Below the pieces are notes generated by a model, which saw nothing but the letters and a program-made list of their open reading frames with translations, had not been told where the DNA came from and made no database searches. From positions 86,062 to 150,061 of the forward strand of contig CAVXGJ010000008.1 of assembly GCA_963761285.1 (NCBI GenBank): DNA of 64,000 nucleotides. The letters run 5' to 3'. The stretch's first letter is position 1, and each line of letters begins with the position of its first letter. Below, in pieces: positions 7,764 through 50,725 of the stretch. This DNA is from an uncultured Actinomycetota bacterium (GTDB lineage: Bacteria > Actinomycetota > Actinomycetes > Propionibacteriales > Nocardioidaceae). The translations under genes were made by a program, and so were the position numbers.

Positions 7764-8450
7764 ATGCTGAGTGGTTACCGACCGGTGGTGCTCGGCCTCG
7801 TCGCCTGGCTCGCCGTGGTGCTGGTGGCGTCAGGGTTGGTCTGGACGGTGATCTCGCGCGCCGGCGCCGACGTGATCGCCGGCGGCACGTCGCTGCCGCC
7901 CCACGCGACCGGTGCGGTGGGGCCGGCAGAGGTGTCGCCGGCCACGCCGACCCGGAGCGGTGCGCGAGACCGCAGTCGGGATCGCGACCAGCAGCCCGGC
8001 TCGACATCGCCCCCCTCGACCACGGCGACCGCGCCCGACTCGAGCTCGCCACCGTCGAGTGCGCCCACCCCGCTCCCGCAGCCCTCGAGCACGGCTGGGC
8101 CAAGTGCATCGGCAACGTCGCCGAGCAAGACCCCGGCGGCGACGCCCACACAAGCGCCGTCTGGCGCGTCGAACCCACCGTCCTCGTCCTCGTCCTCGTC
8201 GAAGAGTCAGCAGCGCACCTGGTCGGGAGCAGCCGGGGTGGTGACTGCCGAGTGCCGGGGATCGGCGATCTCGCTGGTGGGGGTCAACCCGTCGGCCGAC
8301 GGCTACGCCGTCGAGGTGAACAACCGCGGGCCGGAGGAGCTCGAGATCCACTTCGAGGGCCGAGGAGACGAGGACGGCAAGGAGACCGAGCTCCGGGCCG
8401 AGTGTCGGGGCGGTGTGCCGGCCTTCGATGTCTCCGTGGGCGACGACTGA
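7764..8450 (+). CDS. Membrane-anchored protein with Ser/Pro/Thr linker and small Cys-pair C-terminal domain, divergent from the two-component system
   Basis: TM helix, low-complexity linker, domain VTAECRG...GYAVEV...RAECRGG; RBS AGGAGA. Confidence 0.7.
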   Translation: MLSGYRPVVLGLVAWLAVVLVASGLVWTVISRAGADVIAGGTSLPPHATGAVGPAEVSPATPTRSGARDRSRDRDQQPGSTSPPSTTATAPDSSSPPSSAPTPLPQPSSTAGPSASATSPSKTPAATPTQAPSGASNPPSSSSSSSKSQQRTWSGAAGVVTAECRGSAISLVGVNPSADGYAVEVNNRGPEELEIHFEGRGDEDGKETELRAECRGGVPAFDVSVGDD

Positions 8451-17191: not shown

Positions 17192-17207
17192 TCAAACATG
17201 TGTTCGA
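17192..17207. promoter_or_regulatory. LexA (SOS) box
   Basis: TCAAAC-ATGT-GTTCGA, one mismatch to the actinobacterial TCGAAC-N4-GTTCGA. Confidence 0.85.
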
Positions 17208-25059: not shown

Positions 25060-25065
25060 CGCCGC

Positions 25066-25120
25066 TTATCCACAGATCCCTTGAACCCTCTGGCGCGAAG
25101 AGCTCCTCCGGTAGCAATCT
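25066..25120 (+). promoter_or_regulatory. DnaA-box-type motif plus -10 (leaderless)
   Basis: TTATCCACAGAT 25066; CAATCT 25115; ATG 25127. Confidence 0.65.
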
Positions 25121-25126
25121 CGTGGC

Positions 25127-26409
25127 ATGCCTTCATCTCGGAAACGGCGCAACCGCACCTCACGCCCCCACGCCACCACGACCGCCAACACCCCGCCAAC
25201 GAGGAGTGCCTCGACCTCAGCGGCCCGGAGTTCAACGCTCAGATCGACGAGCTCATGACCCCGGCCGACGTCGCCGCCTTCGGTGACTACGTCGACGCCG
25301 AGGCCGTCGGAGATCCGGTGCTGGCTGCCGAGTGCTTTCGCCGAGGCCTTCACATCCAGGGCACGCCGCACCTCCCGCATCTCGCTGACCTGATCGACCT
25401 GGGCGACGACGCCCCATCGTGGGCGCTCGCGCGTTGGGCTTCTCTCCAGGCCTACCGCTGGATGCTGCACGAGCGAGACCCGCGAACGGACAACGCAGTG
25501 ATCACCACGATGCTCGCGTGCTACCCGGACGTCGACCTCGACCGCCCTCTGGGGCTGAGCTTCACCGAGTTTGGCACTCGACTCGCCTCCGGGGACTGGA
25601 TCACCCGCCAGATCGCCGTCTACGAGGCCGACGGTCTGGCCGACTTCCTCGACGTCAAGATCGGCGACGGGCTGCTTGCCCGGTGCGGTCCGCTCGCCAC
25701 TTGGCCGGAAAGCGAGCTCGGTGGCTATCGGCTGCGGCCGGGGCGTGACGGGTTTCTCGACGTACGCGACCTCCGAGATGGCAGCAGGCTCCAGGTCCTC
25801 GACATCGGCGCTCTCAACGATCGCTCGCCGGGCTGCACAGTGCTGGGCAGGGTGGTGCCGATCGACGTCGAGCCGGGCTACCTCTTTGAGTCTCGTCCGA
25901 TCGACGTCGATGACGAGACTGCGCTCGGCGTTGCCCGGGCAGATGGCCCGGAGGAGTGGCTGCCCGTGCTTGACGAGGGACGCCGGTCGGGGCGGCTCCC
26001 ACTGTTCTTCAGCCGCAACGAGGCCACCCCGCTGACCAGCGACCTGGTGCCTCGGGACGGCTGGGGGCAGACGTGCTCGCACGACCTCGAACCCTCAGCG
26101 CGTTCGATGCCGCAGGCGCCAGGACTCCTCGACCTTCAGGACCAGGGGTTGGACTCGCTGCGGGCCAACAACATCGGCGTGTGCGACGTCGCGTTGATGG
26201 CGATCGAGGTCGCGCCCGACGCAGCGTCGACAGTTGCCAACCACGTGCAGGCGGTGCTGGTCGACCGCGCGACGTTCGAGGCGGCGAAGGTGCACCGCAC
26301 CCGACCCGAGCACGCCGAGGGATGGGCCGTCCTTGCGGGAGCAGTGCCGGAGCCGGTGCGTTCGCGCTGCCTCGAGCTGGCCGCCCTGAGTCGCCGGGAC
26401 GCTGCCTGA
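25127..26409 (+). CDS. Uncharacterised protein, paralogue A (frameshift in C-run near 25165)
   Basis: MPSSRKRRNRTSR start matches the basic N-termini of B and C; shared motifs DWITRQ, GGYRL, LDIG, LGRVVP, FESRP. Confidence 0.75.
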
Positions 26410-26465
26410 GCCAGCATCAGAGGACAGCCCGCTGGGTGCCTTGGCCTTCGTGCGAAAGTTCCCGC

Positions 26466-27000
26466 ATGGAGGTGCTGCCCGCCATCGTCGGCGACGACCC
26501 GGTCATCGTGTTCTGCGGGTTGGCCGGCGCCGAGAGCATCAAGAGTCGCGAGCACTACTACGCCTCGCCCGGCAACAGCTTCTGGCAGTCGCTGCACCTT
26601 TCGGGACTCACCCCGCGACAGCTGCGCCCCGATGAGGACGAGCAGATCGTGGAGCACGGCTTCGGCCTGACCGATCTCGTCGGCCACTGGGACCACGCAA
26701 CGGATCGCGGGTGGGTCGACATCGATCGGCTCGTGGCCGCAGGTCGAGCAGTGGGAGCCGGCGTTCGTCGCCTTCACGTCGAAGGGAGCGGCTGCGAAAG
26801 CCGCGAAGGCGCTCGGTCATCGGGCGCCAGGGCTCGGACTCGCGGGCTGGGGCATCGCGCGCTCGGAGGTGTTCGTGCTGCCCGGCACCAGCGGCGCCAA
26901 CCAGCGCCACGACTACGACGGGCGACCGACGCGGCTGGCGTGGTGGCAGGACCTGGCGATGATCGCCGCACCGGAGCTCGGCGCACGACGTACGGAGTGA
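26466..27000 (+). CDS. mug: Mismatch-specific uracil/thymine DNA glycosylase (Mug/TDG family; frameshift near 26740)
   Basis: VFCGLAG, HYYASPGNSFW, GFGLTDL, then FTSK...VLPGTSGAN in the next frame. Confidence 0.8.
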
Positions 27001-27028
27001 TGTCCCCGGTCGCACCTATTCTCGGCGC

Positions 27029-28075
27029 ATGCCCGCCGCGACTCACCTGCCTCTCAGCCCTGCTGCCCTCGATCGCGCCCACGGCGTCCTGCTCGCCACG
27101 GCTGCCGGCGACGCCCTCGGCGTGCCCTACGAGTTCGCCACCCCGCCCGCGCCCGGCGTCCTCGCCGAGATGACCGGCGGCGGACTGGGCAACTTCGCGC
27201 CGGGGGAGTGGAGCGACGACACCTCGATGGCGGTGGCGATCGCCGAGGTCGCGGCCACCGGAGCCGACCTGACGGACCCCCGAGGCGCTCGACGCCATCG
27301 CCGACGGCTTCCTGCGCTGGTACGACGGCGGCCCGGCCGACATCGGGATCCAGACGCAGCTCGGTGCTGGGCGCGACCCGGCGGCGGCTGGATGCGGGGG
27401 AGACGCCACGCGGGGCAGGTGATGGCGCAGGAGGCGCTCGCCTACGCCCGCGACCACCCGCACTCGGCCGGCAACGGCGCGCTGATGCGCACCGCCCCGG
27501 TCGCCCTCGCCCACCTGCACGACCGCGACGCTCTCGCCCAGGCGGCGCGCCTGGTCGCGGCCCTCACCCACGCCGACCCGCTCGCCGGGGACTCGTGCGT
27601 GCTCTGGTGCGAGGCGATCCGGGTCGCGGTGCTCGAGGAGCGGCTCGACGTGCGCGCCGGCCTGGACCTCGCTCGACGACGCCGCCCGCGCGCAGTGGAC
27701 TGGGTGGCTCGACGACGCGCTGCGAGCGCCGTCGACGGAGCCGTCCCCGGGGCACGGTTCAACCCCAACGGGTTCACCGTCACCGCCCTCCAGGCCGCCG
27801 TCGCCGCGATCACCGGCACGCCGGTCCCGAGCGACCAACCAGACCACCACCTCCAGGACGCGCTGCACAACGCCGTCCGCATCGGCAACGACACCGACAC
27901 CGTCGCCGCCATCGCCGGTGGGCTGCTCGGCGCCCGTTGGGGTGCCGCCGCGGTGCCTGGCGCCTGGCGTCGTGCCGTGCACGGCTGGCCCGGCCTGACC
28001 GGCGACGATCTGCTCACCCTCGCCGACCGTACGGTGGGCGAACGAGCCGGTTCGCGTACCCACCCGGAGCGCTGA
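27029..28075 (+). CDS. ADP-ribosylglycohydrolase (DraG/ARH family; internal compensating frameshifts)
   Basis: GDALG, WSDDT, GNGALMRTAP, THAD, GNDTDTVAAIAG. Confidence 0.88.
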   Translation: MPAATHLPLSPAALDRAHGVLLATAAGDALGVPYEFATPPAPGVLAEMTGGGLGNFAPGEWSDDTSMAVAIAEVAATGADLTDPRGARRHRRRLPALVRRRPGRHRDPDAARCWARPGGGWMRGRRHAGQVMAQEALAYARDHPHSAGNGALMRTAPVALAHLHDRDALAQAARLVAALTHADPLAGDSCVLWCEAIRVAVLEERLDVRAGLDLARRRRPRAVDWVARRRAASAVDGAVPGARFNPNGFTVTALQAAVAAITGTPVPSDQPDHHLQDALHNAVRIGNDTDTVAAIAGGLLGARWGAAAVPGAWRRAVHGWPGLTGDDLLTLADRTVGERAGSRTHPER

Positions 28076-28080
28076 CCCGG

Positions 28081-28135
28081 GTTATCCACAGATCGCTTCG
28101 ACCCCCTCGCAACGGCCGCCGAGGCGGCGCAGGCT
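28081..28135 (+). promoter_or_regulatory. DnaA-box-type motif plus -10 (leaderless)
   Basis: GTTATCCACAGATCGCTTCG 28081; CAGGCT 28130; ATG 28142. Confidence 0.7.
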
Positions 28136-28141
28136 CGGGTC

Positions 28142-29419
28142 ATGTCGAACCGTCGGAAACCTCGCAACCAGAAGTGTCGGTCACGCGCCCATGCGCCCGC
28201 AGACTTGCCCTGCAACCCGTACGCCGGGCTGGAGCCCTGGCTGGAGGCGATGCTCGAAGCGGATGCAGCCGAGAGCCGGGGCGACGCTGTCGGAGCGTTG
28301 AAGGTGATGCACCGGCGGCCCTTGGACCCCGACGGAAGGCCGTTCTGGCGGCCCTCGCGTGAGTTCCAGCTGGCTCAGATCGTCGAGCTGGGCCCCGACA
28401 TGCCCCGGTGGGCGGTGTCCCGCTGGATCCTCTGGCAGGCGCTCCATCACCTCTCAGAGCGAGAGCGGGGTTGCGGCCCTCGGACGCGGTTGAGCCGAGC
28501 CCTCCGGGCCGTGGCCGACCTGCACGGTAGGCCACCGTCCGGATCGCCCACCCTCGGTGGAAGCGAAGCCCATGAGCGGACCCAGGCCATCGATCACGAC
28601 TGGGTCTACCGACAGGTGCACCTCTTCGAGCTCGGCGGACTCGAGGCGTTCCTCGCCGACGGAGCCTCGGCCGACCTGATCGCCGGCGCCGACCGGGTCC
28701 GCGACTGGGCGCTGGCTCCCATGGGTGGCTTCACCTACGTCGGCGCCGGCAGCGCGACCCTGCTCTGGCGCGACCTGGCGACCCTCGAGACGGTGGTGAC
28801 GCCCAACATCGGGTCGGCCATCAACCTGGTGCCGGGAAGCACTGCGATCGGCCGGCTGGTGCCGGCCGGTGACGGGGTGATGTTCGAGAGCGCCCCGCTC
28901 GAGGTGCCCCGCGCCCTGGCACGGGCGGTCGCAGCGGACCCGGCGCAGTGGCTCGACCTGCTACGTGACTCCGGGCTGGTCGCCGACGGCACGATCTGCA
29001 CCGAGCATCGCGCTTGGACGACGGTGATGAGTGACGTGCCGCTGGTGCTCACCACCTTGGCGCTCGCGCGGCGCCCCGGCGAGCCTGAGCTCCCCGCGCA
29101 CGCTGCGCCGGCCGAATACGCCCGAGCCGCAATGGGTCTGGTGCGCGAGGCGATGGCCGACCTGCTCGTCGAGCCCCCTCACGACGCCGACTCGGACGAC
29201 GAGCACGAAGTCTGGGCCGACTGGGACTACGAACGGGAGTCCTGGCACGGCTGGCCCTACCTCCACGCCATCCTGCTCGATCCCTACGTCATCTCGGCTC
29301 TTGCCGGGGTGGTCACCTCTGAGGACTTGCCGCTGCTTGAGGAGGTGCGAGACATGCTCGCGGAGCCCGCGTCGACCTGGCTCGGTCGGCTCCTCGACGA
29401 GCGGGCTGCGGCGGCGTGA
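28142..29419 (+). CDS. Uncharacterised protein, paralogue B
   Basis: MSNRRKPR; DWVYRQ, LFELGGL, WALAPMGGF, NIG, IGRLVP, FESAP, PAQWL. Confidence 0.8.
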   Translation: MSNRRKPRNQKCRSRAHAPADLPCNPYAGLEPWLEAMLEADAAESRGDAVGALKVMHRRPLDPDGRPFWRPSREFQLAQIVELGPDMPRWAVSRWILWQALHHLSERERGCGPRTRLSRALRAVADLHGRPPSGSPTLGGSEAHERTQAIDHDWVYRQVHLFELGGLEAFLADGASADLIAGADRVRDWALAPMGGFTYVGAGSATLLWRDLATLETVVTPNIGSAINLVPGSTAIGRLVPAGDGVMFESAPLEVPRALARAVAADPAQWLDLLRDSGLVADGTICTEHRAWTTVMSDVPLVLTTLALARRPGEPELPAHAAPAEYARAAMGLVREAMADLLVEPPHDADSDDEHEVWADWDYERESWHGWPYLHAILLDPYVISALAGVVTSEDLPLLEEVRDMLAEPASTWLGRLLDERAAAA

Positions 29420-29463
29420 AGCCGTCGCCGACGAGGTGTGCGCAAAGTGCTACGTTTGGCTAC

Positions 29464-29724
29464 ATGGACTCGATCGCCTCCCGGGAGCTGCGCAACCACA
29501 CCGCAGCCGCCTTGGCCCGCGTGGCCGGCGGGGAGGTCCTCGCCGTCACGGTGCGCGGCGTCGCCGTCGCCGAGCTGCACCCACCGGGAGATCGGCGCCC
29601 GCGCTGCTTCACCGCCGCTGACGTCGACCGCATCGCGCGTACGCAGGCAGACCCGGGACTACGGGTGCAGCTTCGTGAGCTCGCCGGGGAGACGACCGAC
29701 GACCTCGGCGCGCCGTGGTCGTGA
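29464..29724 (+). CDS. vapB: Phd/YefM-family antitoxin
   Basis: IASRELRNHTAAALARVAGGEVLAVTVRGVAVAEL; overlaps the PIN gene (GTGA). Confidence 0.85.
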   Translation: MDSIASRELRNHTAAALARVAGGEVLAVTVRGVAVAELHPPGDRRPRCFTAADVDRIARTQADPGLRVQLRELAGETTDDLGAPWS

Positions 29725-30116
29725 CGCGGGGCCTGATGGACACCAGCGTTTTCATCGCCGCCGAGTCGGGGCGTGCCCTCGACCTGGGCAGCCTTCCTGC
29801 GGAGTCCTTGGTCTGCGTCATCACCCTGGCCGAGCTCGAAGCGGGCGTCTTGGCCGCACCCGACACCGCGAGCCGGCAGCGGCGACTCGCGACGCTCCAG
29901 ACCGCGGCGAGCCTGCAGCCCCTGACGATCACCTCCGACGTCGCATCGCACTGGGCCGGACTGCGGGTCCACCTTGCGCAGGCGCACCGGTCGATGGGTG
30001 CCAACGACCTGTGGATCGCTGCGGTTGCCGCAGCGCACCATCTGCCGGTGGTGACCCAGGACAACGACTTCGACGTCTTGGTCGAGCTGGGACTGATCGA
30101 GGTCATCCGGGTCTGA
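29721..30116 (+). CDS. vapC: PIN-domain toxin
   Basis: LMDTSVF, ITLAEL, NDLWIAA, VTQDNDF. Confidence 0.9.
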   Translation: MTRGLMDTSVFIAAESGRALDLGSLPAESLVCVITLAELEAGVLAAPDTASRQRRLATLQTAASLQPLTITSDVASHWAGLRVHLAQAHRSMGANDLWIAAVAAAHHLPVVTQDNDFDVLVELGLIEVIRV

Positions 30117-30127
30117 GGGCCTGCGGC

Positions 30128-30799
30128 TCAGGGGCCCTGCGGCTCGTCGAGGCACTCCACGACCAACCCGTCCTCGACCACGCACTGGTAGGGCGCTGCG
30201 CCCGGCGAGATGAAGAAGACGCCGTTGTCGTCGGGACCGCTCAGCGTGTAGTCGCCGTTGCCGTCATACGGATCGAAGAACGCGACTGCCCCCTCCACGG
30301 CGACCGCCTCCGCCGCGGCCCGGTCGCCGTCAAGGATCGCGTCGAAGAACCTTTGGACCGCCTCGGCGTTGGTGAGTGGGTCGTCGCCCTGCGGCTCGTC
30401 CTCACAGCGCTGCACCACGCCGCCCTCCACCAGACACTGGTACGGCGCTGCGCCCGGCGAGATGAAGAAGATGCCGTTCTCGTCCGGACCGCTCAGCGTG
30501 TAGTCGCCGTTGCCGTCATACGGATCGAAGAAGGCGACCGCCTCCTCGGTCGCCACCGCCTCCGCTGCGACGCGGTCACCCTCGACGACCGCGTCGAAGA
30601 AGAGCTGAACGGCAGCGGCGTCGTCGATGACAGCCGGGCTTGCCGGGTCCGCGGTCACGGTGACCGTCTCGGTGACGGTGGTCGTGGGCGTCGCGACGGG
30701 GGAGTCCTCGGCCGAACAACCCGTGCCCACAAGGGCGACACAGCAGAACGCGGCGGCGAGACGAACGGGATCGAAGCCGGCGAGGGTCGTCATGCCCAT
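30128..30799 (-). CDS. Lipoprotein with a tandemly duplicated approximately 84-aa domain
   Basis: Lipobox ...VGTGC; two copies of FFDPYDGNGDYTLSGPD...ISPGAAPYQC at 252-nt offset. Confidence 0.8.
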   Translation of the reverse strand: MGMTTLAGFDPVRLAAAFCCVALVGTGCSAEDSPVATPTTTVTETVTVTADPASPAVIDDAAAVQLFFDAVVEGDRVAAEAVATEEAVAFFDPYDGNGDYTLSGPDENGIFFISPGAAPYQCLVEGGVVQRCEDEPQGDDPLTNAEAVQRFFDAILDGDRAAAEAVAVEGAVAFFDPYDGNGDYTLSGPDDNGVFFISPGAAPYQCVVEDGLVVECLDEPQGP

Positions 30800-30860
30800 C
30801 GACGTTACGACGGTGCGGACGTTTCCGTGGCGATACGCCGACGCTCGCCGACGGACGCGG

Positions 30861-32162
30861 TCAGGCGTTCTGGTCGCTGTGGTCCGACCGACGAGTCACG
30901 ATGACCTGGCTGACGGCGATGATCGCCGCCACGCTCAATGACACCGCCAGCGTGAGGACGTCGTCGCGTGCCTTGATCGTGACGAAGGCACCGAGCACCA
31001 CGAGATCGAGCGCGATTGCGATCGCCGGGACAACGGGAGTCGCCTTGATGTCGATGCGCAGGTGCCGGATCACGCCCCAGTGGATGGCGATGTCCATGGC
31101 GAGGTAGAGGATCGCGCCCATCGAGGCGATCTGACCCAGGTCGAGAAACGCCGCGAGCACGATCGCCAGACCAGCGGTCACCACCAGCGACTGGTGGGGC
31201 ACGCGCGACGGCAGACCCGGCGCCTGCCCCATGTCGCGCAACATGTCGTAGAGCCGGGTGACCGAGTAGATGCTGGCCAGCAGGCCGGAGAAGGTCGCCA
31301 CGACGGCGAGGGCGATCGTGAGCCCCACGCCCCAGGACCCGAAGAGGGGTTCCGCTGCCGCGGCCAGCGCGTAGTCGCGGGCCTTGACGATCTCGTCGAC
31401 GCTGAGGCTGCCGGCCACGGCCACGGTCAGCACCAGGTACAGGACGGCGCAGAGCACGATCGAGATGGTGATCGAACGGGCCAGGTTCTTCTTCGGGTCC
31501 CTGATGTCACCGCCCTGGTTGGTGATGGTGGTGAAGCCCTTGTAGGCCAGGATGCAGAGCGTCGTCCCGGCGAGGAAGCCGAGCACTCCCTGGTCGCTGC
31601 TGCCGTTGTCGGCGCTTGCGAAGTCGAGCATCGACGACGGCCCGGTCGCGATGATCGCACCGATGGCCAGAGCACCGATGCCGAGGATCTTCAGGCCGGC
31701 CGTCACCGTGGCTGACCGCTCGACCCACTGGGTGCCGACCAGGTTGATGAGTGCAGCGACGACGATGACGCCCACGGCGAGCGCGGGCACCAGGACTGCG
31801 GAGTCCTCGAGCCCAAAGGGGCGCAGTGCGTAGGTGCCGAAGGTGCGGCCCAGCAGGCTCTGGGCCACCACCATCGAGACGTACATGAACAACGAGAACG
31901 TGCCGGCGATGACCCCCGGTCCGTACGCCGCCTTGAGCAGCATTGCGATGCCGCCGGAGGACGGATTGGTATCGGAGTAGCGCACGTAGGAGTAGGCGCT
32001 GAAGCCTACGACCACGGCGCCGGCGAGGAACGCCAGCGGCATCAGGGTGCCCGCCAGCTCGCTCACCTGGCCGACGAGGGCGAAGATGCCGGCCCCGATC
32101 ATCACGCCGGTGCCGAGGGAGACCGAGCCTGCCAGGGACAGCTTGTCGTCGTGCTCGGACAT
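30861..32162 (-). CDS. APC-family amino acid/polyamine permease
   Basis: GTGVMIGAGIF, GGIA, about 12 TM helices. Confidence 0.9.
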   Translation of the reverse strand: MSEHDDKLSLAGSVSLGTGVMIGAGIFALVGQVSELAGTLMPLAFLAGAVVVGFSAYSYVRYSDTNPSSGGIAMLLKAAYGPGVIAGTFSLFMYVSMVVAQSLLGRTFGTYALRPFGLEDSAVLVPALAVGVIVVAALINLVGTQWVERSATVTAGLKILGIGALAIGAIIATGPSSMLDFASADNGSSDQGVLGFLAGTTLCILAYKGFTTITNQGGDIRDPKKNLARSITISIVLCAVLYLVLTVAVAGSLSVDEIVKARDYALAAAAEPLFGSWGVGLTIALAVVATFSGLLASIYSVTRLYDMLRDMGQAPGLPSRVPHQSLVVTAGLAIVLAAFLDLGQIASMGAILYLAMDIAIHWGVIRHLRIDIKATPVVPAIAIALDLVVLGAFVTIKARDDVLTLAVSLSVAAIIAVSQVIVTRRSDHSDQNA

Positions 32163-32219
32163 GGCGCCGAACCTAGCCAGCCGAGCCCCGGACGCCCTAC
32201 ATCCGTGGGGATGGGGTCG

Positions 32220-32274
32220 GTTATCCACAGATCGCTCCGACCCCCTGGCGACGGACCCGTTCTCGGCGCAGGCT
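32220..32274 (+). promoter_or_regulatory. DnaA-box-type motif plus -10 (leaderless)
   Basis: GTTATCCACAGATCGCTCCG 32220; CAGGCT 32269; ATG 32281. Confidence 0.7.
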
Positions 32275-32280
32275 CGGGTC

Positions 32281-33468
32281 ATGTCTCGGTCTCGGAAGCG
32301 CCCCTCGTCCATCCCGCCCGCTCGGCCGTCCAGCGGCCGCTACCGCTCGGTCGCCAGCCAGATGACCCTCGATCACGAGCTCGCCGTCGCGGAGGCCAGT
32401 GCCGCCGAGCTCCGCGGCGACTGGGCCACCGCCTTGGCCCGCCACCGGTCCGTGCCGATGTTCGTGGAGTCGCACCACGGCGCGATGTTGTCGGCGCTGG
32501 CGACCTTCGGGGACGACGCGCCCCGATGGTGGGTCACGCGTTTCCTCACCGCAATGGCGCACCGCCACGAGCTCTACGCCCAGCCGACGCGTTCGAGCAG
32601 CGTGCTGCAGACCCTGGTGCCGCTGCTCTACCCCCACGGCATCGACATCGACGCCCTGGACTGCGACCACACCGAGCAGATCGCCTCGACGATCTTCGGC
32701 TGCGACTGGGTGGTCCGGCAGGCCGATGTCTTCGACCTCGGCGGGCTGCGCGATCTGATCGCGATGCCCGAGGCGCAGGGCGCGCTGGCGCAGGCCGAGT
32801 ACGTCGCGGAGTGGGCCGCGGCTCCGATGGGCGGCTATCGCGTGGTCGTCGCCGACGGCGAGGTCCTGACCATCGCCGACGCAGTCAGTGGTGAGGAGAT
32901 GGAGCTCCTCGACCTCGGCCTCACCTGCCAGCACGAGCCCGGCACCCACGTGCTGGGTCGCGTCGTGCCCACCGGCGCCGGACCCGGCCGACTCTTCGAC
33001 TGGGCGCCTCTCCCGGTGGACCAGCGCATCGCACGCGAGGTCGCCGGGCAGCCCGACCGCTGGCTCGCTGTCATCGCCTCGCGGACCAGGTCAGGGGCCA
33101 TGGCGCCGGGCTTCGCCCACCGCCCCGAGCTGTCGGTGCACGCCGACCTCCCGCAGTTCTCGTGGGCGCTGCTGCTGGGACACCCGATCGGCACGAGGCT
33201 GCCGCGCGCGCCGAGGACGATGGTCGCCGAGGCGCTCAAGGTCGCCCTCACGCTCCCCGTCGACGACCTCGAGCGGCACCGCCACCTGGTGGCCCAGCTC
33301 CTCCTCGACGAGCTCGTGCACGAGCGATTGCTAGAGCGCTTCGCATCACCGACCTACCGTGGCGCGTGGCAAGCGCTGGCGAAGATCCTGCCCACCCCCG
33401 CGCGCGGACGCTGCGAGCAGGCGCTCTGGCTGATCGACGCCGTGACCGGCGACGAGCTCGCGGGGTGA
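32281..33468 (+). CDS. Uncharacterised protein, paralogue C
   Basis: MSRSRKRP; DWVVRQ, VFDLGGL, WAAAPMGGY, LDLG, LGRVVP, PDRWL. Confidence 0.8.
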   Translation: MSRSRKRPSSIPPARPSSGRYRSVASQMTLDHELAVAEASAAELRGDWATALARHRSVPMFVESHHGAMLSALATFGDDAPRWWVTRFLTAMAHRHELYAQPTRSSSVLQTLVPLLYPHGIDIDALDCDHTEQIASTIFGCDWVVRQADVFDLGGLRDLIAMPEAQGALAQAEYVAEWAAAPMGGYRVVVADGEVLTIADAVSGEEMELLDLGLTCQHEPGTHVLGRVVPTGAGPGRLFDWAPLPVDQRIAREVAGQPDRWLAVIASRTRSGAMAPGFAHRPELSVHADLPQFSWALLLGHPIGTRLPRAPRTMVAEALKVALTLPVDDLERHRHLVAQLLLDELVHERLLERFASPTYRGAWQALAKILPTPARGRCEQALWLIDAVTGDELAG

Positions 33469-34043: not shown

Positions 34044-34231
34044 GGCGTGCTCCTAGGGGTCTGGGTCCAAAGACACATGAATCTCATCGTGAACCCGGCC
34101 CGGGGGACCCGCCATGACCCGTTCTGACCACCCGTCCATAGCCCGCCCGGGTGATCTCGCGCGAGGGTTCGATCGTTGGTCGCGTGCGGGGCCGAACCGG
34201 TGTTGCGGCGCCACTTACTAGCCTGGACACC

Positions 34232-35689
34232 GTGAGCCCTCGCGACCCCCGCCTGCCCGACAACGTCCGAGCGCTGCGACCGGCCGACGCCGAGCGGCTC
34301 CTGCAGGACCTCGTCGGGCATGCTGCGGCACCCTCCTTCGGCCAGCTGCCCGAGCGCACGCCACCGGAACCGTGGGCGGCGCCCTCGCAGGCCCGGCTGT
34401 TCACTGTGATGCTCGCCCTCGACGACCTGGAGCCGCTCATCTGGCGCCGGCTCGCGGTGGCGGGCGACGTCACCCTCGACGAGCTGCACGGCGTCCTGCA
34501 GGAGGCGATGGGGTGGACCGACTCGCACCTGCACCGCTTCGTGATGGGTCCCGGTGAGCGCGACCACGGTCGGCTGCCCTTCGTGGAGCCCTACGCCGAG
34601 TCCGAGGGCGACGACGGCATCGTCGAGCGCGACATACGACTCGATCAGGTGCTCGCCGAGGAGGGCGACCGGCTCTACTACGACTACGACTTCGGCGACG
34701 GGTGGGAGCACACGATCACGGTCGAGGCAGTGAAGCCGCTCGAGGACGACTCGCCGCGAGCGACGTGCCTGGACGGCGCCCGCGCCTGCCCGCCGGAGGA
34801 CGTCGGCGGGGTCCCGGGCTACGAGGAGGTGCTCGAGGCGCTGGAGCGCCCCGGCGCCCCCGTCTCGGACTGGATGCGGCAGGTCCTCGACTGGCTGCCG
34901 GAGGGCTTCTATCCGTCGAAGTTCGACCTGGCCCGGACCGACGAGCTCGTACGTCGCGCCGCCGTGCCCACCCCCGAGCTGCCGCCGGCGCACCTGCTGC
35001 CCGCGCCGCTGGTCGAGGTGGTGGCCGGGCTCGACGACCGAGGTGCCGCCATGGTGGCGCACTGGTGCGTCGACGCGCTGGCACCCGTGGCGCTCGACGC
35101 CGAGGCGGCCACCGCGATCACCGCCCCCTGGCGGATGCTCCTCGACACCGTCGGCGACGGGATGGCGCTCACCGGCGCGGGCTACCTGCCGCCGGCCGTG
35201 GTCTCAGCCCTGATCGCCGGGTTGCCGGTGCGCAACCTGTGGGGCAAGGGCAACCGGGAAGAGCACACGCCGCCGGTCGCCGACCTGCACCAGACCGCTC
35301 GCACCCTCGGCCTGGTCCGCAAGGCGAAGGGCCGCCTGCTGCCCACCACCCTCGGCACCCGGCTCCGCCAGGATCCCGACGCGCTGGTCCGGCACCTGGC
35401 CGCTCGCCTGACGCCCGGCAAGAAGCCGAACCAGCGCGAGGCTGAGTGGCTGGTCGTGCTGGCGGCGGCCGCCGGGGTCATCGAACCGTACGACGACGTC
35501 GCGCAGGCTCTCTCGGGGATGGGCTGGCGTCAGAGCAACGGCGCACTGCTGCGCCGAGACCACCCCTACCACTGGGCGCACCATCCCCGAGCCGTGCTCG
35601 GCCTCGCCGGCTGGAACCCTGGGAAGTACGACGATCTCTCGCACGACCCGCGCGCCAGGATCCTGGCCCAGCTCGCGGTGCAGACCTGA
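34232..35689 (+). CDS. pRiA4b ORF-3-like domain protein with C-terminal extension
   Basis: IWRRL, LHGVLQEAMGWTDSHLHRF, YDYDFGDGWEH, CPPEDVGG. Confidence 0.85.
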   Translation: MSPRDPRLPDNVRALRPADAERLLQDLVGHAAAPSFGQLPERTPPEPWAAPSQARLFTVMLALDDLEPLIWRRLAVAGDVTLDELHGVLQEAMGWTDSHLHRFVMGPGERDHGRLPFVEPYAESEGDDGIVERDIRLDQVLAEEGDRLYYDYDFGDGWEHTITVEAVKPLEDDSPRATCLDGARACPPEDVGGVPGYEEVLEALERPGAPVSDWMRQVLDWLPEGFYPSKFDLARTDELVRRAAVPTPELPPAHLLPAPLVEVVAGLDDRGAAMVAHWCVDALAPVALDAEAATAITAPWRMLLDTVGDGMALTGAGYLPPAVVSALIAGLPVRNLWGKGNREEHTPPVADLHQTARTLGLVRKAKGRLLPTTLGTRLRQDPDALVRHLAARLTPGKKPNQREAEWLVVLAAAAGVIEPYDDVAQALSGMGWRQSNGALLRRDHPYHWAHHPRAVLGLAGWNPGKYDDLSHDPRARILAQLAVQT

Positions 35690-43401: not shown

Positions 43402-43427
43402 CCACAACCTGCAGTCGATCCACGCTC

Positions 43428-43481
43428 CTGTCCACAGGCTCGGAATTCGAGGTTTTGGCGGCTCGTCGTAGCGGTGAGCGT
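43428..43481 (+). promoter_or_regulatory. DnaA-box variant plus -10-like hexamer (leaderless)
   Basis: CTGTCCACAG 43428; GAGCGT 43476; ATG 43489. Confidence 0.4.
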
Positions 43482-43488
43482 TGGGGGC

Positions 43489-46167
43489 ATGACCTCCACC
43501 CGACGCCTTTCGCGTTCCCTCCGTCGTCCCTTCCGCCGTCCCCTCCTGGCCACGCTCTGCGCGCTCGTCCTGGTGCTCGCCACCTTCAGCCTCGTCGTCG
43601 CCCCGCCCGGTGGGCCGCCCCCGGCTGCGGCGGCGACGCGGGTCGCGAAGGACGACTGCCGCAGGATCGACCCCAACCTCGTCAACGGCGTCTGCCTGCG
43701 CTTCGCGACGCCGCGAGGCAGCGCGCTGACCTGGATCGGCACCTATCGGGCACCCGAACGGGCGGGTGTTCTTCTGCATCGACTACCTCTACGACTCCCG
43801 GTTGCCGGCGCAGGCCGAGTCGGTCTCGACCCGCGACCTGGTCAACCAGCTCGGTCAGGGCGTCGGCGACCGTGAGGTGGCCGCCCTCAACTACGTCATC
43901 TCGACCTGGGCCGGGCGCGGCTCGACCGGCAGCGACGAACGCGACGCCGCGATCGCGCTCATCGTGCGCGAGGTGATGGACGACGGCACCCGTCCGGGCG
44001 GGGTGGTCGTCTACCCCGGCGGCCTCGAGGTGGGCGAACGGGTGCGCCCGCCGATCGGCGGGCTCGGGCGGTGAGGTGATGCGCCTGGCTCGCACGATGT
44101 GGCGGGAGGCGTCGCGCGCCTACGGTCCGTGGCGGCTGAGCCTGCGCAAGACCTCCGACGGGCCGATGCGGCTCGGCCGCAGCCGCACCTACCGGGTCGA
44201 GGTCACCAGCGCCGCGGGGCGTCCGGTCAAGGGCGTCCGGGTGCGGCTGGCCTGCCGTGGCCCGATCACCTGCCCGGACGGCGTGCGCACCACCCGCCGC
44301 GGTGCGCCGCTGCGGGTGCGTCCCACCGAGACCGGTCGGTTCCGGATCCGCGCGCGGGTGTCCGGGCCGGACTCCGACGGGCTGCTCTACCGCGAACGCG
44401 GGTGGAGCACGCACGGCGGCGCCACCGCCCGGGCGCTCGGAGTCCAGCGTGGATGGATCGCGCAGGACAACCGGGCGCGAGCATCTGCGACGGCGCGCAC
44501 CACCATCAAGAAGGCTCGCCCGGAGGTGGTCACCCGCACGTCGCACCCGGTGGTGAAGCCCGGGGCCGACCTCCACGACGTCGTCACGGTCACCGGACTT
44601 CCCGAGGGCTACGCCGCCACCGTGGTCGCCACCCTGCACGGTCCGTATGACGAGCGCCCCGGCCGCGACGACGTGCACCGACGCCAGCCGCGCCGGTCGG
44701 GTGCGCTTCGAGGTCGACGGCAACGGCACCTTCACCACCCCCTCCGTCACCGTGGCCGCGGTGGGCTACTACACCTGGGTCGAACGCTTCCCCGGCGACC
44801 GCTTCACGGTGCCGTTGACCACTCGTTGCGGGATCGTCGAGGAGACCACGCTGGTGGAGCCCTTCACCCCGGCCCTGATCACCGAGGCCTCGCGGCAGCG
44901 AGCCGAGGTCGGCGACGCGATCCACGACTCCGTCGAGGTCACCGGTCTGGCCGACACCGCGGCGACCCTCGAGTGGGCGCTGCACGGGCCGCGCCGTCCT
45001 GTCGACGGGTCGTGCGGCGAGGTCCGCTGGGGTGCGGCGGAGGTGGCAGATCAGGGCAGCCTGGCGATCAGCGGCGACGGCACCTACCGCACGCCGGCCA
45101 CGCGGCTGGCGCGCGCCGGTTGCTACACCTACTCCCAGCGGCTCGCCCCCACCGCCCTCAGCTCCGAGGCGCTCAGCCCTCCGGGCCTGGCGCTCGAGAC
45201 GACGCTGGTGCGGCGTCGTACGCCCGAGGTGACGACGGTGGTCTCCGACCAGCGCGCGCTGGTCGGCGACAAGATCCGCGACACGGTGCGGCTGCGAGGA
45301 CTGTGGTCGGGTGACCGGGTCCGGGTGTCGTGGCGGCTGCACGGTCCGCTCGCACCGCAGCGGGGCACGTCGTGCCGCGGGTTGGACTGGTCGGACGCGC
45401 CGGTCGTCGACGAGGGCGAGTTCGGGGCGCGCGGCAACGGGCGCCACCACACCCGCTGGACCACGGTGCGGGCGCCGGGGTGCTTCACCTACTCCGAGAC
45501 GGTGGCCGCGACCGATGCCACCGACCGGGTCGCCACCAGGCCCGGGATCCCGCTCGAGACCTCACTGGTGACCCGGCCGGTGACCCCGATCGTGCCGGAG
45601 ATCCCGTCGGGCTTCGCGATCGCTGCCGGCGACGCCTGGGACCGGCCTGCAGAGCGGACGACGCCGCGCTACCTCGAGCGCCGCTACGTCGCACCCGAGT
45701 CACCCGACCTGCTGCGCGGGGCGGCTTCGCCCGCCGAGCTGCGGATCCCGCGGTTGGGGATCCGGGCCGGGGTCAGCAGCGTCGGGCTCGACGCCGGCAC
45801 GATGGCGATCCCCAACGACACCGGCCGGCTCGGGTGGCTCTCCACGACCGCGGCGGCCACCGACCTGATCGGGGCGAGCCTCATCTCGGGCCACGTCTCC
45901 GACCGCCGCGACCGTCCGGGGGCGTTGTGGCGGCTGCGTGAGGCGCGGGTGGGCGACGCGGTGCGGTGGACCGACGCGAGCGGCGCGACGCAACGCTTCG
46001 TCGTACGTCGGGTCCAGCGGTTCCCGCGCAGCACCGGGGTGCCGGCGCGGCTGCTGCGCACCACCGGGCCTCACACCCTGCACCTGGTGACCTGCGCCGA
46101 CCGGCGCCGCACGAGCACCGGCTTCCACTACGTCGACAACCTCGTCGTGACCGCGGTGCTTCCGTAG
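43489..46167 (+). CDS. Secreted multidomain adhesin-like protein fused to a C-terminal class F sortase (three apparent frameshifts)
   Basis: Signal peptide; FFCIDY domain; three repeats of ..DxVxVxGL...LHGP...GC/YYT.S/VE...ETTLV; sortase LRIPRLGI, ISGH, LHLVTC, YVDN. Confidence 0.75.
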
Positions 46168-47615: not shown

Positions 47616-49002
47616 GGCTTCACGTAGGCGGTGATGATGCGGTAGCCGTCCGGCATGGAGCGTGTCCTTCTTCAGGTAGAGGTGCACCGACGTGCCCTCG
47701 AAGACGTCGCCGGCCCGGTTCATGATCCGGCCCGGATTGGCGACGGGTGCCTCGAAGGCAGTGGACCGCCTGGGGCTGGCGAGGAACCGGGCCAGGGTCC
47801 GGCTCCGTCAGCGCCAGTACGGTCTGGATGGAGCGCTCCGCGGTGGCCTCGTCGGTGAAGGTGGACACCAACTTCTTGCCAGGCTCGTCGATCAACCGCT
47901 GCCTCAAGAAGTCGTCCGACTTGCCGACATGCTTCCCGATCGTGTGCGCCCCCAGCGCCCACCCTCGTGCGCCGCACAAGAACGACCTGGCCCGCCCGCC
48001 GCTCGACCCAGCCTTCCCCACCTCAGCGGTCATCAGCAGCCGCGCCTCGCTCATCGGGCGCAACCGCGCCCCGACGCCGGCCGCGGCGACGCGGGTGCCG
48101 GAGAGGGCCTGGGCGGCTTCGTCGGCGTAGCGCCGCACGAGGTCGAGCATCCGCTTGAAGCGGGGCGCGGCGGCCGCGATCTTGGCGAGGTTGACGGCGA
48201 CGGCGCCACCGTTGGCGGTGCCGAAGCTGACGAAGCCGAGCGCGAAGCCGGCGGCCTGGATGAGGGCGGCGTCGCGGAGCAGGTCGCGGACCAGGTCGAG
48301 GATCGCCGCGCGCTGGGCCTCGACTGCGGCGGCGTACCCCTCGCAGAGGGCGCCCAGATCGCGGCACTGGTCGGCGAGGTCGCCGATCGCGATCACCGCG
48401 CGGCCGATGGCTGCCGTCGCCGGGAGGACCTCGGGGGAGCACTCGGTCCAGAGCTCGTTGATCGCGCGGCGCGGGTGGCCGGCGATCTCGTCGAGACCGT
48501 CGCCGGCGCGGCGCCAGGTGGCGGCGGCACTCCGCAGCCGGTCGAGGTCGGCGTCGGGCCACACGAAGCCCTCGACGTGGTCGAGGATCATGTTGGCCCA
48601 GCCGGGCAGCGACGAGGAGTCCCCGCCCAGCGACCCCGGGGGTGTCGGGGCGAGCACGTCGACCCAGTCGTCGGTGCCGAGCGAGACTCCGTCGACCAGG
48701 CGCACCTCGCCGAGGGTGGAGGCGAGCTCGGCGCGGGTGTGGTTCTCCAGCGAGGCACGCGAGTAGCGGCCCAGGGTGCCCAGGGCGCCGACCACGTCGG
48801 CGAGGGCGGCGCACGCCGCGGCGGCCGCGGCGTCGTACTCCTCGGCCCACCGATCGGCGAACGAGGAGTCGCCGGCCATCGCTGCGGTGTCGACGAGGTC
48901 GTCGGCGAGCCGGCCGACGAGCCGGGCCGCCCACACGTTGGCGAAGTGCAGGAGCCCCGAGGCCTCGCGGTAGCCGCCCCCGGCGATGTCGAGCCGGGTC
49001 AC
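47612..49002 (-). CDS. CpnT-like type VII secretion polymorphic toxin with RNase-A-like C-terminal domain (frameshifts in toxin domain)
   Basis: N-terminal MAGD...YD..A...N..AE and VWPDADLDRLRSAAATWR; C-terminal HE.G..GAHTIGKHVGKSD...STF...SMPDGYRIITAYVKP. Confidence 0.8.
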
Positions 49003-49301
49003 AGGCGCTCCCACATCGCCAGGTTGGCGCGCACCGCCGCGCCGTAGTTGGTGCGTGCGGTGCTCGCCGCCGTACGCATCGCCGCCAGGCCCTCGCGCAT
49101 CGTCGCGAAGCCGGTCTCCCACCGCGCCTGCGCCTCGAGCTGGGCAGCAGCTGCCTGTCCCTCCCAGGTCAGGTGCAGCCGACCTACTTGGCGCACGACG
49201 TCGTCCAGCGCCCGGTCGCACTCCTCCTCGCAGGCGACGAGGCTCTCGATGGTCTGCGCGAGCAGGTCCAGGTCCACGGCGTACGCCGCCGGGTGGCTCA
49301 T
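48999..49301 (-). CDS. esxE: WXG100 protein, EsxE-like
   Basis: 100 aa; RLHLTWEGQAAAAQLEAQARW...NYGAAVRANLAMW. Confidence 0.8.
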   Translation of the reverse strand: MSHPAAYAVDLDLLAQTIESLVACEEECDRALDDVVRQVGRLHLTWEGQAAAAQLEAQARWETGFATMREGLAAMRTAASTARTNYGAAVRANLAMWERL

Positions 49302-49627
49302 CCGAGGCGCTCCACGAGCCGGCGGGTCAGCGAGACCAGGGCGGTGCGCGCGGAGTCGTCGGCGCCGTCGGCCTCGGCGCCGGCGTCGACGATCAGTGCC
49401 GTCAGGCTCCGCAACGCGCCCAGGACCTCGTCGCAGCCGAGGCGCCACTCCTCCCAGCCCTCGAGGTAGGAGCGCGCCGCGGCGCCGGACCAGCCGCCGT
49501 CGAGGAGCACGTCGACCTGGCGCTCGGTGACCCGTCGGCGCCGCTCGAGGTCGTCGCTCACCCGCTGCAGGGCTGCGACGGTGGCGGCGAGGTCAGGGTG
49601 GCTGAGCTGGAGGAGGGGGTGGGTCAT
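49298..49627 (-). CDS. esxF: WXG100 protein, EsxF-like
   Basis: 109 aa; GGWSGAAARSYLEGWEEWRLG; RBS GGGAG. Confidence 0.75.
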   Translation of the reverse strand: MTHPLLQLSHPDLAATVAALQRVSDDLERRRRVTERQVDVLLDGGWSGAAARSYLEGWEEWRLGCDEVLGALRSLTALIVDAGAEADGADDSARTALVSLTRRLVERLG

Positions 49628-49662
49628 GGGAGCTCCCGAGTGAGTCCGTGGGTGACGCCTCC

Positions 49663-49717
49663 AGCCTGACCCGGATCGAGGGCTCGGAAGCGGCCCGCGG
49701 AGCAATCTGTGGATAAC
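49663..49717 (-). promoter_or_regulatory. DnaA-box-type motif plus -10 for the esx operon
   Basis: Minus strand GTTATCCACAGATTGCTCCG (from 49717); CAGGCT starts at 49668, 48 nt from the box. Confidence 0.7.
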
Positions 49718-49747
49718 TCCGGACTTCGTCCTGGCACACTGACCCCC

Positions 49748-50725
49748 ATGCCGGACGACTTCGTCATCGCCCGCAACCCCGACGGCGACTCAGCGCTGCC
49801 CTACCTGCTGCGGATCCCGCTCGGCGACGACGGGATCGTGCTGAAGTCGCGCGAGACCTGGCCGCGCACCACGAAGGTCTACTGCCATCGTGTCGAGGCC
49901 TGGCCCGAGGACGCCGAGGTGATCGAGCGGGTGCCGGTGCGCAGCTGCATCCGACGCGGGGCCTCGATCGACCTGGTGCTCGACCGGGGCCGGGAGAACC
50001 GGTCGCAGCTCGTGATGACCCGGATCCGTGGTGGCCGGCAGGCGATCTTCTGGCAGACCGCGCGCACCGCCAAGCAGGCTCGCCCGGCGGTGGCGGTGCC
50101 GCGCGCTCGCGCGTCGGGGCTCACCGGGCAGGCAGGCCTCGAGATCGTCGTCGACTCCCACGAGCGCTACGCCTACAGTTTCGCCGACCAGCAGGTCGTC
50201 ACCCGCAAGGCGGGGCTCTCGGCCGGTGACTACGGGGTGGTGCGCGACGAGGTGCTCATCGCCTCGGTCGAGCGCAAGAGCCTGGTCGACCTCGTCTCGT
50301 CGCTGACCTCCGGCAAGCTGAAGTACCAGCTCGCCGACCTGTCCAGCGTCCCGCGGGCAGCCGTCGTGGTCGAGGAGCGCTACTCGGCGATCTTCAAGCT
50401 CGACCGGGTGCGGCCGGCGGTGGTGCTCGACGGCCTCGCCGAGTGTCAGGTGCGCTGGCCGCAGGTGCCGATCCACTTCTGCGAGACCCGCAAGCTCGCC
50501 GCCGAGTGGACCTACCGCTTCCTGGCCGCCGCCTCGGTCGCGGCGGGGGAGGACGACCACGGCGCGGAGGTCGTCTCCACCCTCAGCACCCCGCCGCCGC
50601 TGGCCGCCGCCCCGGCGACGCCGGCGGAGATCAGGAGCTGGGCGGCGAGCAACGGCTACGAGGTCTCCGACCGGGGGCGGGTGCGCCGCGAGGTCGTCGA
50701 GGCCTTCGAGCGCTCGCGCGGCTGA
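49748..50725 (+). CDS. ERCC4-type nuclease with C-terminal Lsr2-like DNA-binding domain
   Basis: VVDSHE, AGDYG, VERKSLVDL; AEIRSWAASNGYEVSDRGRV; CACACT -10 7 nt before ATG. Confidence 0.85.
   Translation: MPDDFVIARNPDGDSALPYLLRIPLGDDGIVLKSRETWPRTTKVYCHRVEAWPEDAEVIERVPVRSCIRRGASIDLVLDRGRENRSQLVMTRIRGGRQAIFWQTARTAKQARPAVAVPRARASGLTGQAGLEIVVDSHERYAYSFADQQVVTRKAGLSAGDYGVVRDEVLIASVERKSLVDLVSSLTSGKLKYQLADLSSVPRAAVVVEERYSAIFKLDRVRPAVVLDGLAECQVRWPQVPIHFCETRKLAAEWTYRFLAAASVAAGEDDHGAEVVSTLSTPPPLAAAPATPAEIRSWAASNGYEVSDRGRVRREVVEAFERSRG

Follow-up and report, generated by a model that had tools for sequence, protein, structure and literature searches.

The 64,000-nucleotide (nt) window analyzed here, taken from a contig of an uncultured Nocardioidaceae bacterium (CAVXGJ010000008.1), holds three genes of one uncharacterized protein family, termed A, B, and C, and the locus raises the question of why the DNA upstream of these genes is more alike than the genes themselves. 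The best overall explanation, to which we give an even chance of being right, is that the genes form a paralogue family of the Nocardioidaceae placed under a shared regulon defined by a conserved box and promoter. The shared upstream module looks like the signature of a small, previously unrecognized regulon that also includes genes unrelated to the family.

Three paralogues with a common upstream module

The three genes lie on the same strand:

25127..26409, plus strand: gene A, open reading frame (ORF) open from 25081/25127; third paralogue type, orthologue of protein P0034 (86% identity)
28142..29419, plus strand: gene B, 425 amino acids (aa), N-terminus MSNRRKPR; orthologue of the second gene of a tandem pair in other genomes
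32281..33468, plus strand: gene C, 395 aa, ORF open from 32047, N-terminus MSRSRKRP

Gene C is orthologous to the gene that comes first in that pair (Nocardioides dokdonensis I601_1807, N. rubriscoriae). Pairwise BLASTP comparison gave 33% identity for B and C (E 6e-26), 32% for A and B (E 1e-19), and 29% for A and C (E 1e-36), and together with the family alignments it establishes A, B, and C as true, homologous paralogues. The collinear motifs that a previous reading of this DNA from its letters alone (the sequence-only reading) had listed are invariant or almost so across the family: in alignments with orthologues and distant relatives this holds for W83, R87, D142-W143..R146-Q147, W178, G226-R227-x-V-P230, P243, and P258..W261-L262.

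The same reading had pointed to the likeness of the DNA upstream of B and C despite strong divergence of the proteins. The upstream regions of B and C are 78% identical, those of A and C 66%, and those of A and B 56%, compared with 44-47% for the aligned coding DNA of the three genes. A search for the box GTTATCCACAGATC found four sites in the window at no more than two mismatches against 0.11 expected, and none of 100 shuffles gave four. Three of the sites (25065, 28081, and 32220) are located 61-62 nt upstream of the ATGs of A, B, and C, and the remaining one (49717) is on the minus strand. The elements of the three family promoters are as follows:

25065..25077, plus strand: box of A, CTTATCCACAGAT, containing the 9-mer TTATCCACA; begins 6 nt past the stop of the preceding ORF
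25091..25120, plus strand: putative core promoter of A, -35-like TGGCGC (25091-25096), 18-nt spacer, -10-like CAATCT (25115-25120), the -10 T being 7 nt before the A of the ATG
28081..28093, plus strand: box of B, GTTATCCACAGAT; begins 6 nt past the stop of an ADP-ribosylglycohydrolase gene
28107..28135, plus strand: putative core promoter of B, -35-like TCGCAA (28107-28112), 17-nt spacer, -10-like CAGGCT (28130-28135)
32220..32232, plus strand: box of C, GTTATCCACAGAT
32246..32274, plus strand: putative core promoter of C, -35-like TGGCGA (32246-32251), 17-nt spacer, -10-like CAGGCT (32269-32274)

Thus, the proposal that all three genes have the same promoter module is correct; however, gene A has a copy that has clearly diverged further than the other two, and the module is not specific to the family.

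Architecture of the module

The 14 family promoters compared, taken from the window and from seven further loci, aligned readily and revealed the invariant positions T5-C6-C7-A8-C9-A10-G11, C23, T27, G47, A52, T56, and the C-A-T-G that includes the start codon. The box occupies a fixed position at -60 to -49 (TTNTCCACAGAT; extended form TTNTCCACAG(A/G)(T/C)) and in many copies is followed by GACCCC at about -42 to -37. A52 and T56 are bases 2 and 6 of an nAnnnT hexamer (CAGGCT, CAATCT, CACGCT, CAGGGT, or GAGCCT), the T being 7 nt before the A of the ATG, and T27..C30-G31 form a -35-like TnnCGn element at 17-18 nt from the -10. The box-to-ATG distance of 61-62 nt is kept in N. dokdonensis, N. 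rubriscoriae, and metagenome orthologues, and no Shine-Dalgarno sequence precedes the family ATGs. In 259 kb of high-GC DNA, an nAnnnT hexamer stands at offset 48-50 from 20-22 of 68 distinct TCCACAG sites, compared with 1-10 at other offsets, in a sample that is partly biased since some loci were retrieved by the box itself.

In the leaderless promoters of Actinobacteria, a -10 element TANNNT precedes the start codon by about 7 nt, and the mycobacterial -35 consensus is TTGCGA, which the TnnCGn of the module resembles. We therefore infer that the module is a leaderless promoter of the sigma-A type, with transcription predicted to start at the ATG (+1). Leaderless transcription and its start are predicted here from spacing, a search of RNA-sequencing runs having found none that contains the sequence, and it weighs against the assignment that the -10 opens with C or G instead of T. 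An RNA element was considered as another reading of the module and rejected: RNAalifold gave no consensus structure for it (-0.07 kcal/mol), and there was no Rfam match anywhere in the window at gathering thresholds, so that conservation appears to act at the DNA level. In one subgroup of loci (L002 at 5894-5912, L005, L006 at 4254-4272, and L133 at 7890-7908), promoter positions 21-37 have the pattern CCCY-N9-RGGG, whose two arms change in a compensatory manner (CCCT/AGGG, CCCC/GGGG, and GCCC/GGGC).

The module precedes unrelated genes

The fourth site, as well as a looser fifth instance, belongs to genes outside the family:

49656..49717, minus strand: fourth module copy, box GTTATCCACAGAT at 49717-49705, -10-like CAGGCT at 49668-49663, box-to-(-10) spacing as in B and C
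47620..49627, minus strand: predicted WXG100-toxin operon, WXG100 genes at 49627-49298 and ~49301-48999, toxin-like ORF extending to 47620
43427..43491, plus strand: looser fifth instance, box CCTGTCCACAGGC, -10-like GAGCGT at 43476-43481, ATG at 43489 of a signal-peptide protein

The fourth copy is separated from the first WXG100 gene by a leader of ~30 nt with a GGGAG Shine-Dalgarno sequence. The toxin-like ORF has 533 codons and combines a WXG100_2 domain with an RNase A-like CdiA-CT domain, and by its domain content the whole unit is identified as a type VII polymorphic-toxin operon. An ORF divergent from this operon (49709-50725, plus strand), whose annotated GTG start overlaps the box, encodes an ERCC4 nuclease domain and a C-terminal Lsr2 DNA-binding domain.

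The same arrangement of box and -10 was found in other loci before WXG100 genes (L008, L009, L034, and L021, with a related box in L007), before DUF222-HNH genes (L007 and L009; the box in L008 is a related one), and before a DUF559/AbiEi-like gene (L095). It also stands before Tad/Flp-like genes in L069 and L092; in the high-GC loci L069/L120 and L092/L123, the 18-mer TTATCCACAGATTGCTCC precedes Tad/Flp pilin-like and Ssd/TadZ-type ATPase-like genes, named here by reading of their sequences only. The proposed selection on the upstream module is borne out by this equal spacing in other species, by the invariant positions, and by the sharing of the module with non-homologous genes. A box common to unrelated genes argues for a regulon and not for a private promoter of the family, and the finding is therefore larger than had been supposed.

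The promoters of A, B, and C contain neither a LexA motif nor a PafBC motif (TGTCGGTG-N8-TAnnnT), although both occur elsewhere in the window; control of these genes by the SOS response or by PafBC was therefore rejected. Perfect RecA-NDp/PafBC-type motifs TGTCGGTG-N8-TAnnnT are present at 36634 and 52779 (plus strand) and LexA-type boxes at 17192, 18108, and 18161, so that DNA-damage regulons are recognizable in this organism. The DUF222-HNH promoters of L007, L008, and L009 hold, in addition to the module, a PafBC-type TGTCGG-N8-TAGAAT and a LexA-type TCGAAC-N4-GTTCGA motif.

The metagenome scan with the 18-mer TTATCCACAGATYGCTCC was dominated by a conserved intergenic element on contigs with a GC content of ~0.6. 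In L012, L013, L014, and ~50 more metagenome loci of this composition, the 18-mer reads TTATCCACAGATTGCTCC, continues as ...ACAGTATTTGTGCGCAAG, and is embedded in a highly conserved intergenic element of unrelated bacteria. This element was considered as a replication origin (oriC) and rejected, since neither dnaA nor dnaN was found in the flanks of L012 and L032. A scan of viral sequences gave one unrelated match, at a ParB-like gene in DNA of 0.53 GC.

A recurrent gene pair in variable islands

In nine other loci (L002 of N. rubriscoriae, L005, L006, L007, L008, L009, L132, L133, and L135), a C-type gene is directly followed by a B-type gene. The two genes overlap by TGATG in L002, L005, L006, and L133, are separated by 6-7 nt in L132 and L135, and have a short gap with a Shine-Dalgarno sequence in L008; there is no box between them, the box being upstream of the first gene only. 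These abutting or overlapping junctions without an internal box are read as those of a translationally coupled operon. Other copy numbers also occur: a third copy, likewise behind a box, is found in L133, two copies lie apart in L010 with a box upstream of each, and N. dokdonensis has a single copy within the retrieved region.

In the window, the paralogues are interleaved with other genes, as had been reported: an ADP-ribosylglycohydrolase gene, a PhdYefM/PIN pair (vapBC), an amino-acid permease gene, and a UDG-superfamily gene (the previously named Mug) that is found only on reading through a frameshift. The description of the family as dispersed rather than tandem is thus correct for this window and does not hold for the nine loci with abutting or overlapping genes. 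The window retains parts of the common synteny, with NERD and a UvrD_C fragment upstream of A and with VapBC downstream of B. Genes B and C thus represent the usual pair, split into its two halves, and A belongs to a third type. The dispersed layout and the promoter of B, with its 78% identity to that of C, are derived, and the layout, being a local rearrangement of a standard pair, is less peculiar than had been supposed. A further gene between B and C (30128-30799, minus strand) encodes a predicted lipoprotein of two tandem ~95-aa modules (…FFDPYDGNGDYTLSGPD.NG.FFISPGAAPYQC…) without a Pfam match.

In L132 and L135, the neighbors of the pair include Wadjet JetABCD, a PLD-DEAD-DUF3427 helicase, and DUF222; L133 has SIR2_2 and a NERD/UvrD_C gene, and L002 a CBASS E2-like gene, PycTM, and HNH. 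VapBC immediately follows the pair in L132. A DUF2786 protein is encoded upstream of the pair in L002, L005, L006, and L135, and a DUF4262-like protein adjoins family genes in L002, L009, and L010; a literature search on the box motif and on DUF2786/DUF4262 found nothing useful. The pair therefore sits in variable islands full of defense and conflict genes, which suggests a role in defense or conflict. This putative role is drawn from the neighborhood, and the PADLOC, PHROGs, phage, and plasmid searches, which gave no match, weigh against it. A PRiA4_ORF3 (MM3350-like) protein is encoded next to gene C (34151-35689, plus strand), and a PRiA4_ORF3 homologue lies by the pair in L009 (~8080, minus strand), preceded by a TCTCCACAGG box that makes up an inverted pair with a second box.

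The protein family and its predicted fold

Among 1.84 billion representative proteins, a family profile matched 385 clusters at E<=1e-3; with the threshold set at E<=1e-30, the number was 196. Every member with a named organism belongs to Nocardioides or the Nocardioidaceae (N. dokdonensis FR1436, N. rubriscoriae, N. panaciterrulae with protein WP_179664736.1, and metagenome-assembled genomes); at least six related loci are in genome contigs, and a profile-based search for homologues gave no set wider than the C-type orthologues. An N-terminus of the form M[PS]xSRxR is present in 51 of 143 near-full-length representatives, many other entries being called from a downstream Met, and the mean net charge of the first 25 residues is +8. 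The basic N-terminus, first seen in the three window proteins, is thus a trait of the whole family, and the tail may serve in binding of nucleic acid.

No match to A, B, or C was found in Pfam-A (E<=1), NCBIfam, PADLOC (E<=0.01), or PHROGs, apart from a sub-threshold HTH_29 match of B in Pfam, and no PDB sequence matched the family profile. A tblastn search with C was also negative in 50,697 phage and 72,556 plasmid records. The family thus remains uncharacterized, as originally described, with no clear relative among characterized families. The SEC-C motif (PF02810) was noted as absent by the sequence-only reading and is indeed absent from A, B, and C by hmmscan against Pfam-A (E<=1), and the likeness to SEC-C proteins proposed in the same place has no support from any Pfam match. 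The family could not be assigned to any of the tested groups: SEC-C proteins, OB families, PADLOC systems, and phage or plasmid families. Also, no conserved catalytic motif was recognized in it, which weighs against the best explanation.

AlphaFold2 models of C (predicted local distance difference test score 88.9, predicted template-modeling score 0.86) and B (88.8 and 0.87, respectively) agree in architecture: a basic disordered N-terminal tail, a helical domain of ~150 residues, a small beta-barrel similar to oligonucleotide/oligosaccharide-binding (OB) or SH3 barrels, and a second helical domain. The barrel has five to six strands, spans residues 184-246 of C and 195-255 of B, and bears the invariant GR(V/L)VP. 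Foldseek comparison of the models with PDB and BFVD gave nothing below E 0.1. The recurring matches were small barrels only, namely the EF-P/eIF5A N-domain, cold-shock domains, Rrp40 S1, HypC, RuvA domain I, and the PAN N-domain (probability up to 0.98, root-mean-square deviation 2.5-4 A across 55-70 residues); at E 0.1-2 they are statistically non-significant, which counts against the assignment. The presence of the barrel in both models and the restriction of the matches to small barrels make an OB-like central region plausible. Of the earlier proposal for this region, the OB-like barrel is thus supported as a prediction, by two independent models and weak Foldseek matches, and the link to SEC-C proteins is not.

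Frameshifts in gene A and in the UDG-like gene

In the window, the ATG at 25127 (MPSSRKRR) is out of frame with the long ORF of gene A: the frame is lost after codon 13, at a C-run (25165-25169) where one nt is missing, and from there the main ORF runs on in the -1 frame until it ends at 26409. Sister short-read contigs from the same metagenomes have an extra A after 25166 (X2 and X4) or 2 nt fewer at 25165 (X4). Either indel restores the frame, giving MPSSRKRRNRTSRHPRHHDR, and the extra A yields ...RTSRHPRHHDR; the intact orthologue P0034 reads MPSSRKRRGRTPRHPRHHDR... at this place. The UDG-like gene is also frameshifted, near 26739-26740, where all four runs have one nt fewer, and when read through it matches PF03167 (E 7.7e-9). 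Since the two indels lie within 1.6 kb and neither is present in the sister contigs, assembly errors are likelier than pseudogenes. We consider both frameshifts likely errors of the window sequence, strain-specific mutation being the less probable alternative. Programmed frameshifting in A was rejected, because there is no slippery heptamer and the sister contigs carry an indel at the site. Just upstream of A, the segment 23484-24622 (plus strand) contains a UvrD_C_2 fragment and, after it, a NERD domain on an ORF of its own; at the equivalent place before the pair, L133 has an intact NERD/UvrD_C gene of 549 aa, which suggests gene decay or more assembly errors in this segment of the window.

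The factor that reads the box and alternative explanations

The 9-mer TTATCCACA, present at A, B, C, and the fourth module, matches the perfect DnaA box of E. coli at nine of nine positions. The orthologue promoters carry the variants TTGTCCACA and TTCTCCACA, which are the actinomycete forms, perfect DnaA boxes of actinomycetes being TT(G/C)TCCACA (PMC4285127). The third-position variants A, G, and C fit the DnaA-box definition TT(A/G/C)TCCACA, and with the perfect 9-mer they make DnaA the best named candidate, if a tentative one that we regard as rather unlikely to be correct. Several observations weigh against it. Stable DnaA binding usually involves clusters of boxes, and each family promoter has one good box, the next 9-mer in register (2-3 bp spacing) matching at ~4-6 of nine positions. 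Positions G11, A12, and T13 and the GACCCC element are conserved outside the DnaA consensus and suit another factor at least equally well. Four TCCACA boxes are present upstream of nrdR (19720, 19731, 19773, and 19795), two of which overlap a putative second NrdR box, so that they support DnaA only weakly. The segment 19690-19800, upstream of nrdR (ATG at 19842) and nrdJ, contains a palindromic NrdR-type box, CCACTACATCTAGTAG, whose core recurs there as ACATCTAGT; the TCCACA boxes overlap these elements or come after them.

Conservation beyond the 9-mer (invariant G11, nearly invariant A12 and T13) and the second element GACCCC, together with the rigid position and single orientation expected of an activator in contact with the polymerase, are what one would see if the box were read by a regulator other than DnaA, such as a response regulator of the MtrA/PhoP type or a monomeric helix-turn-helix protein; in that case, the regulon would have no relation to replication status. 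The box has the core CACAG in common with the reported MtrA site GTCACAGCG (PMC4285127), but the match is poor beyond this core, the variable positions 14-19 leave no conserved second half-site of a direct repeat, and the full DnaA-box match with third-position variants exactly as described for DnaA boxes is left without explanation. We consider such a regulator a real possibility, if one short of an even chance. The boxes, beginning 6-8 nt past the upstream stop, resemble the boundaries of cassettes, and a subset of orthologue promoters has the CCCY-N9-RGGG hairpin with its compensatory changes, so that the module might instead be a transcribed 5' leader or a site at which a mobile cassette recombines or attaches. 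We regard this as very improbable in view of the lacking Rfam match and RNAalifold consensus, the placement of the conserved A (-11) and T (-7) relative to the ATG, the failure to find flanking repeats, an integrase, or a tRNA in the window (a tRNA scan of the whole window found none), and the lack of plasmid or phage matches.

Two further alternatives concern the origin of the similarity and the role of the proteins. A recent copying of the promoter onto B would account for the 78% identity of the B and C upstream regions, and the similarity could then be a mere remnant of duplication or gene conversion with no regulatory meaning; this is hardly credible given the conservation of equal spacing across species, the presence of the module before non-homologous genes, and the location of the invariant positions exactly at the box, A-11, T-7, and the ATG. 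The family proteins might also be accessory or immunity-type proteins of a type VII (WXG100) polymorphic-toxin system that neutralize or escort the toxins. Consistent with this, the WXG100-WXG100-toxin operon is under the same module, the pair is within ~5 kb of a WXG100 operon in L007, L008, and L009 (16 kb in the window), and the family is multi-copy, fast-diverging, and lineage-restricted, like immunity families. However, the retrieved flanks of L001, L002, L132, L133, and L135 contain no WXG100 operon, proteins of ~400 aa with a basic tail and an OB-like barrel are unlike typical immunity proteins, and unrelated genes are also under the module, so that we consider this role improbable.

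A possible mechanism and its significance

In the preferred explanation, that of a Nocardioidaceae paralogue family within a box-promoter regulon, a sequence-specific protein bound at the TTNTCCACAGAT box would contact RNA polymerase and set the activity of the module promoters, and transcription of the family genes would start at the ATG itself. If DnaA is the bound protein, the island genes would have their expression linked to replication status. Proteins of the B and C types might act jointly on nucleic acid, using the barrel and the basic tails, in defense, conflict, or stress. In the window, on this explanation, the usual C-type/B-type pair has come apart, B has gained its own copy of the promoter, and a third type, A, has been added. 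A more specific version of this scheme, in which DnaA or a factor reading DnaA boxes switches on leaderless promoters of conflict islands, driving type VII toxins and an OB-barrel pair with basic tails that targets nucleic acid in defense or stress, and so couples replication status to inter-bacterial and anti-mobile-element conflict, seems doubtful to us.

A protein family without sequence or structural relatives that is confidently foldable, restricted to one actinobacterial family, and recurrent as a pair in defense islands shows the features by which undescribed conflict systems are usually recognized. Apart from this, the promoter is unusually easy to read. Should DnaA be the reader of the box, the regulon would be a clear case of control of accessory or conflict genes of Actinobacteria by the replication initiator; with any other factor as reader, the regulon would be new, and the box could be used as bait for its regulator.

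Comparison with known systems

The module resembles the actinobacterial leaderless promoters of the sigma-A type in the invariant A-11 and T-7, the position 7 nt before the ATG, and the lack of a Shine-Dalgarno sequence, and differs from them in a -10 that starts with C or G and in the additional conserved upstream site. Among promoters regulated through DnaA boxes are those of E. coli dnaA and nrdAB, and in B. subtilis clusters of DnaA boxes are located beside regulated genes. The module shares with these promoters a box that is perfect at nine of nine positions (TTATCCACA, with TTGTCCACA/TTCTCCACA in orthologues), promoter-proximal, and fixed in orientation. Unlike them, it has one box and not a cluster, at the rigid position -60 to -49, with conserved flanks (G-A-T, then GACCCC), and its binding by DnaA is a prediction. 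To our knowledge, no such DnaA-box regulon has been described for Actinobacteria.

At the protein level, there is no demonstrable likeness to the SEC-C-motif proteins, the family having neither the SEC-C motif nor a Pfam or NCBIfam match. Similarity to the OB/SH3 small barrels (cold-shock, S1, EF-P/eIF5A N-domain, and RuvA domain I) is confined to the central 60-70 residues, predicted as a five-to-six-stranded barrel with a root-mean-square deviation of 2.5-4 A; the Foldseek E of 0.1-2, the lack of a profile match, and the setting of the barrel between two helical domains without structural relatives distinguish the family from them. The two-gene modules of defense islands differ from the pair in that the latter matches no PADLOC model, has no recognizable effector (nuclease, NADase, or pore), and is made up of mutual paralogues. 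Like these modules, the pair is tight or overlapping, restricted to one lineage, and fast-evolving, and it is found among Wadjet, SIR2, NERD-helicase, VapBC, and CBASS-type genes.

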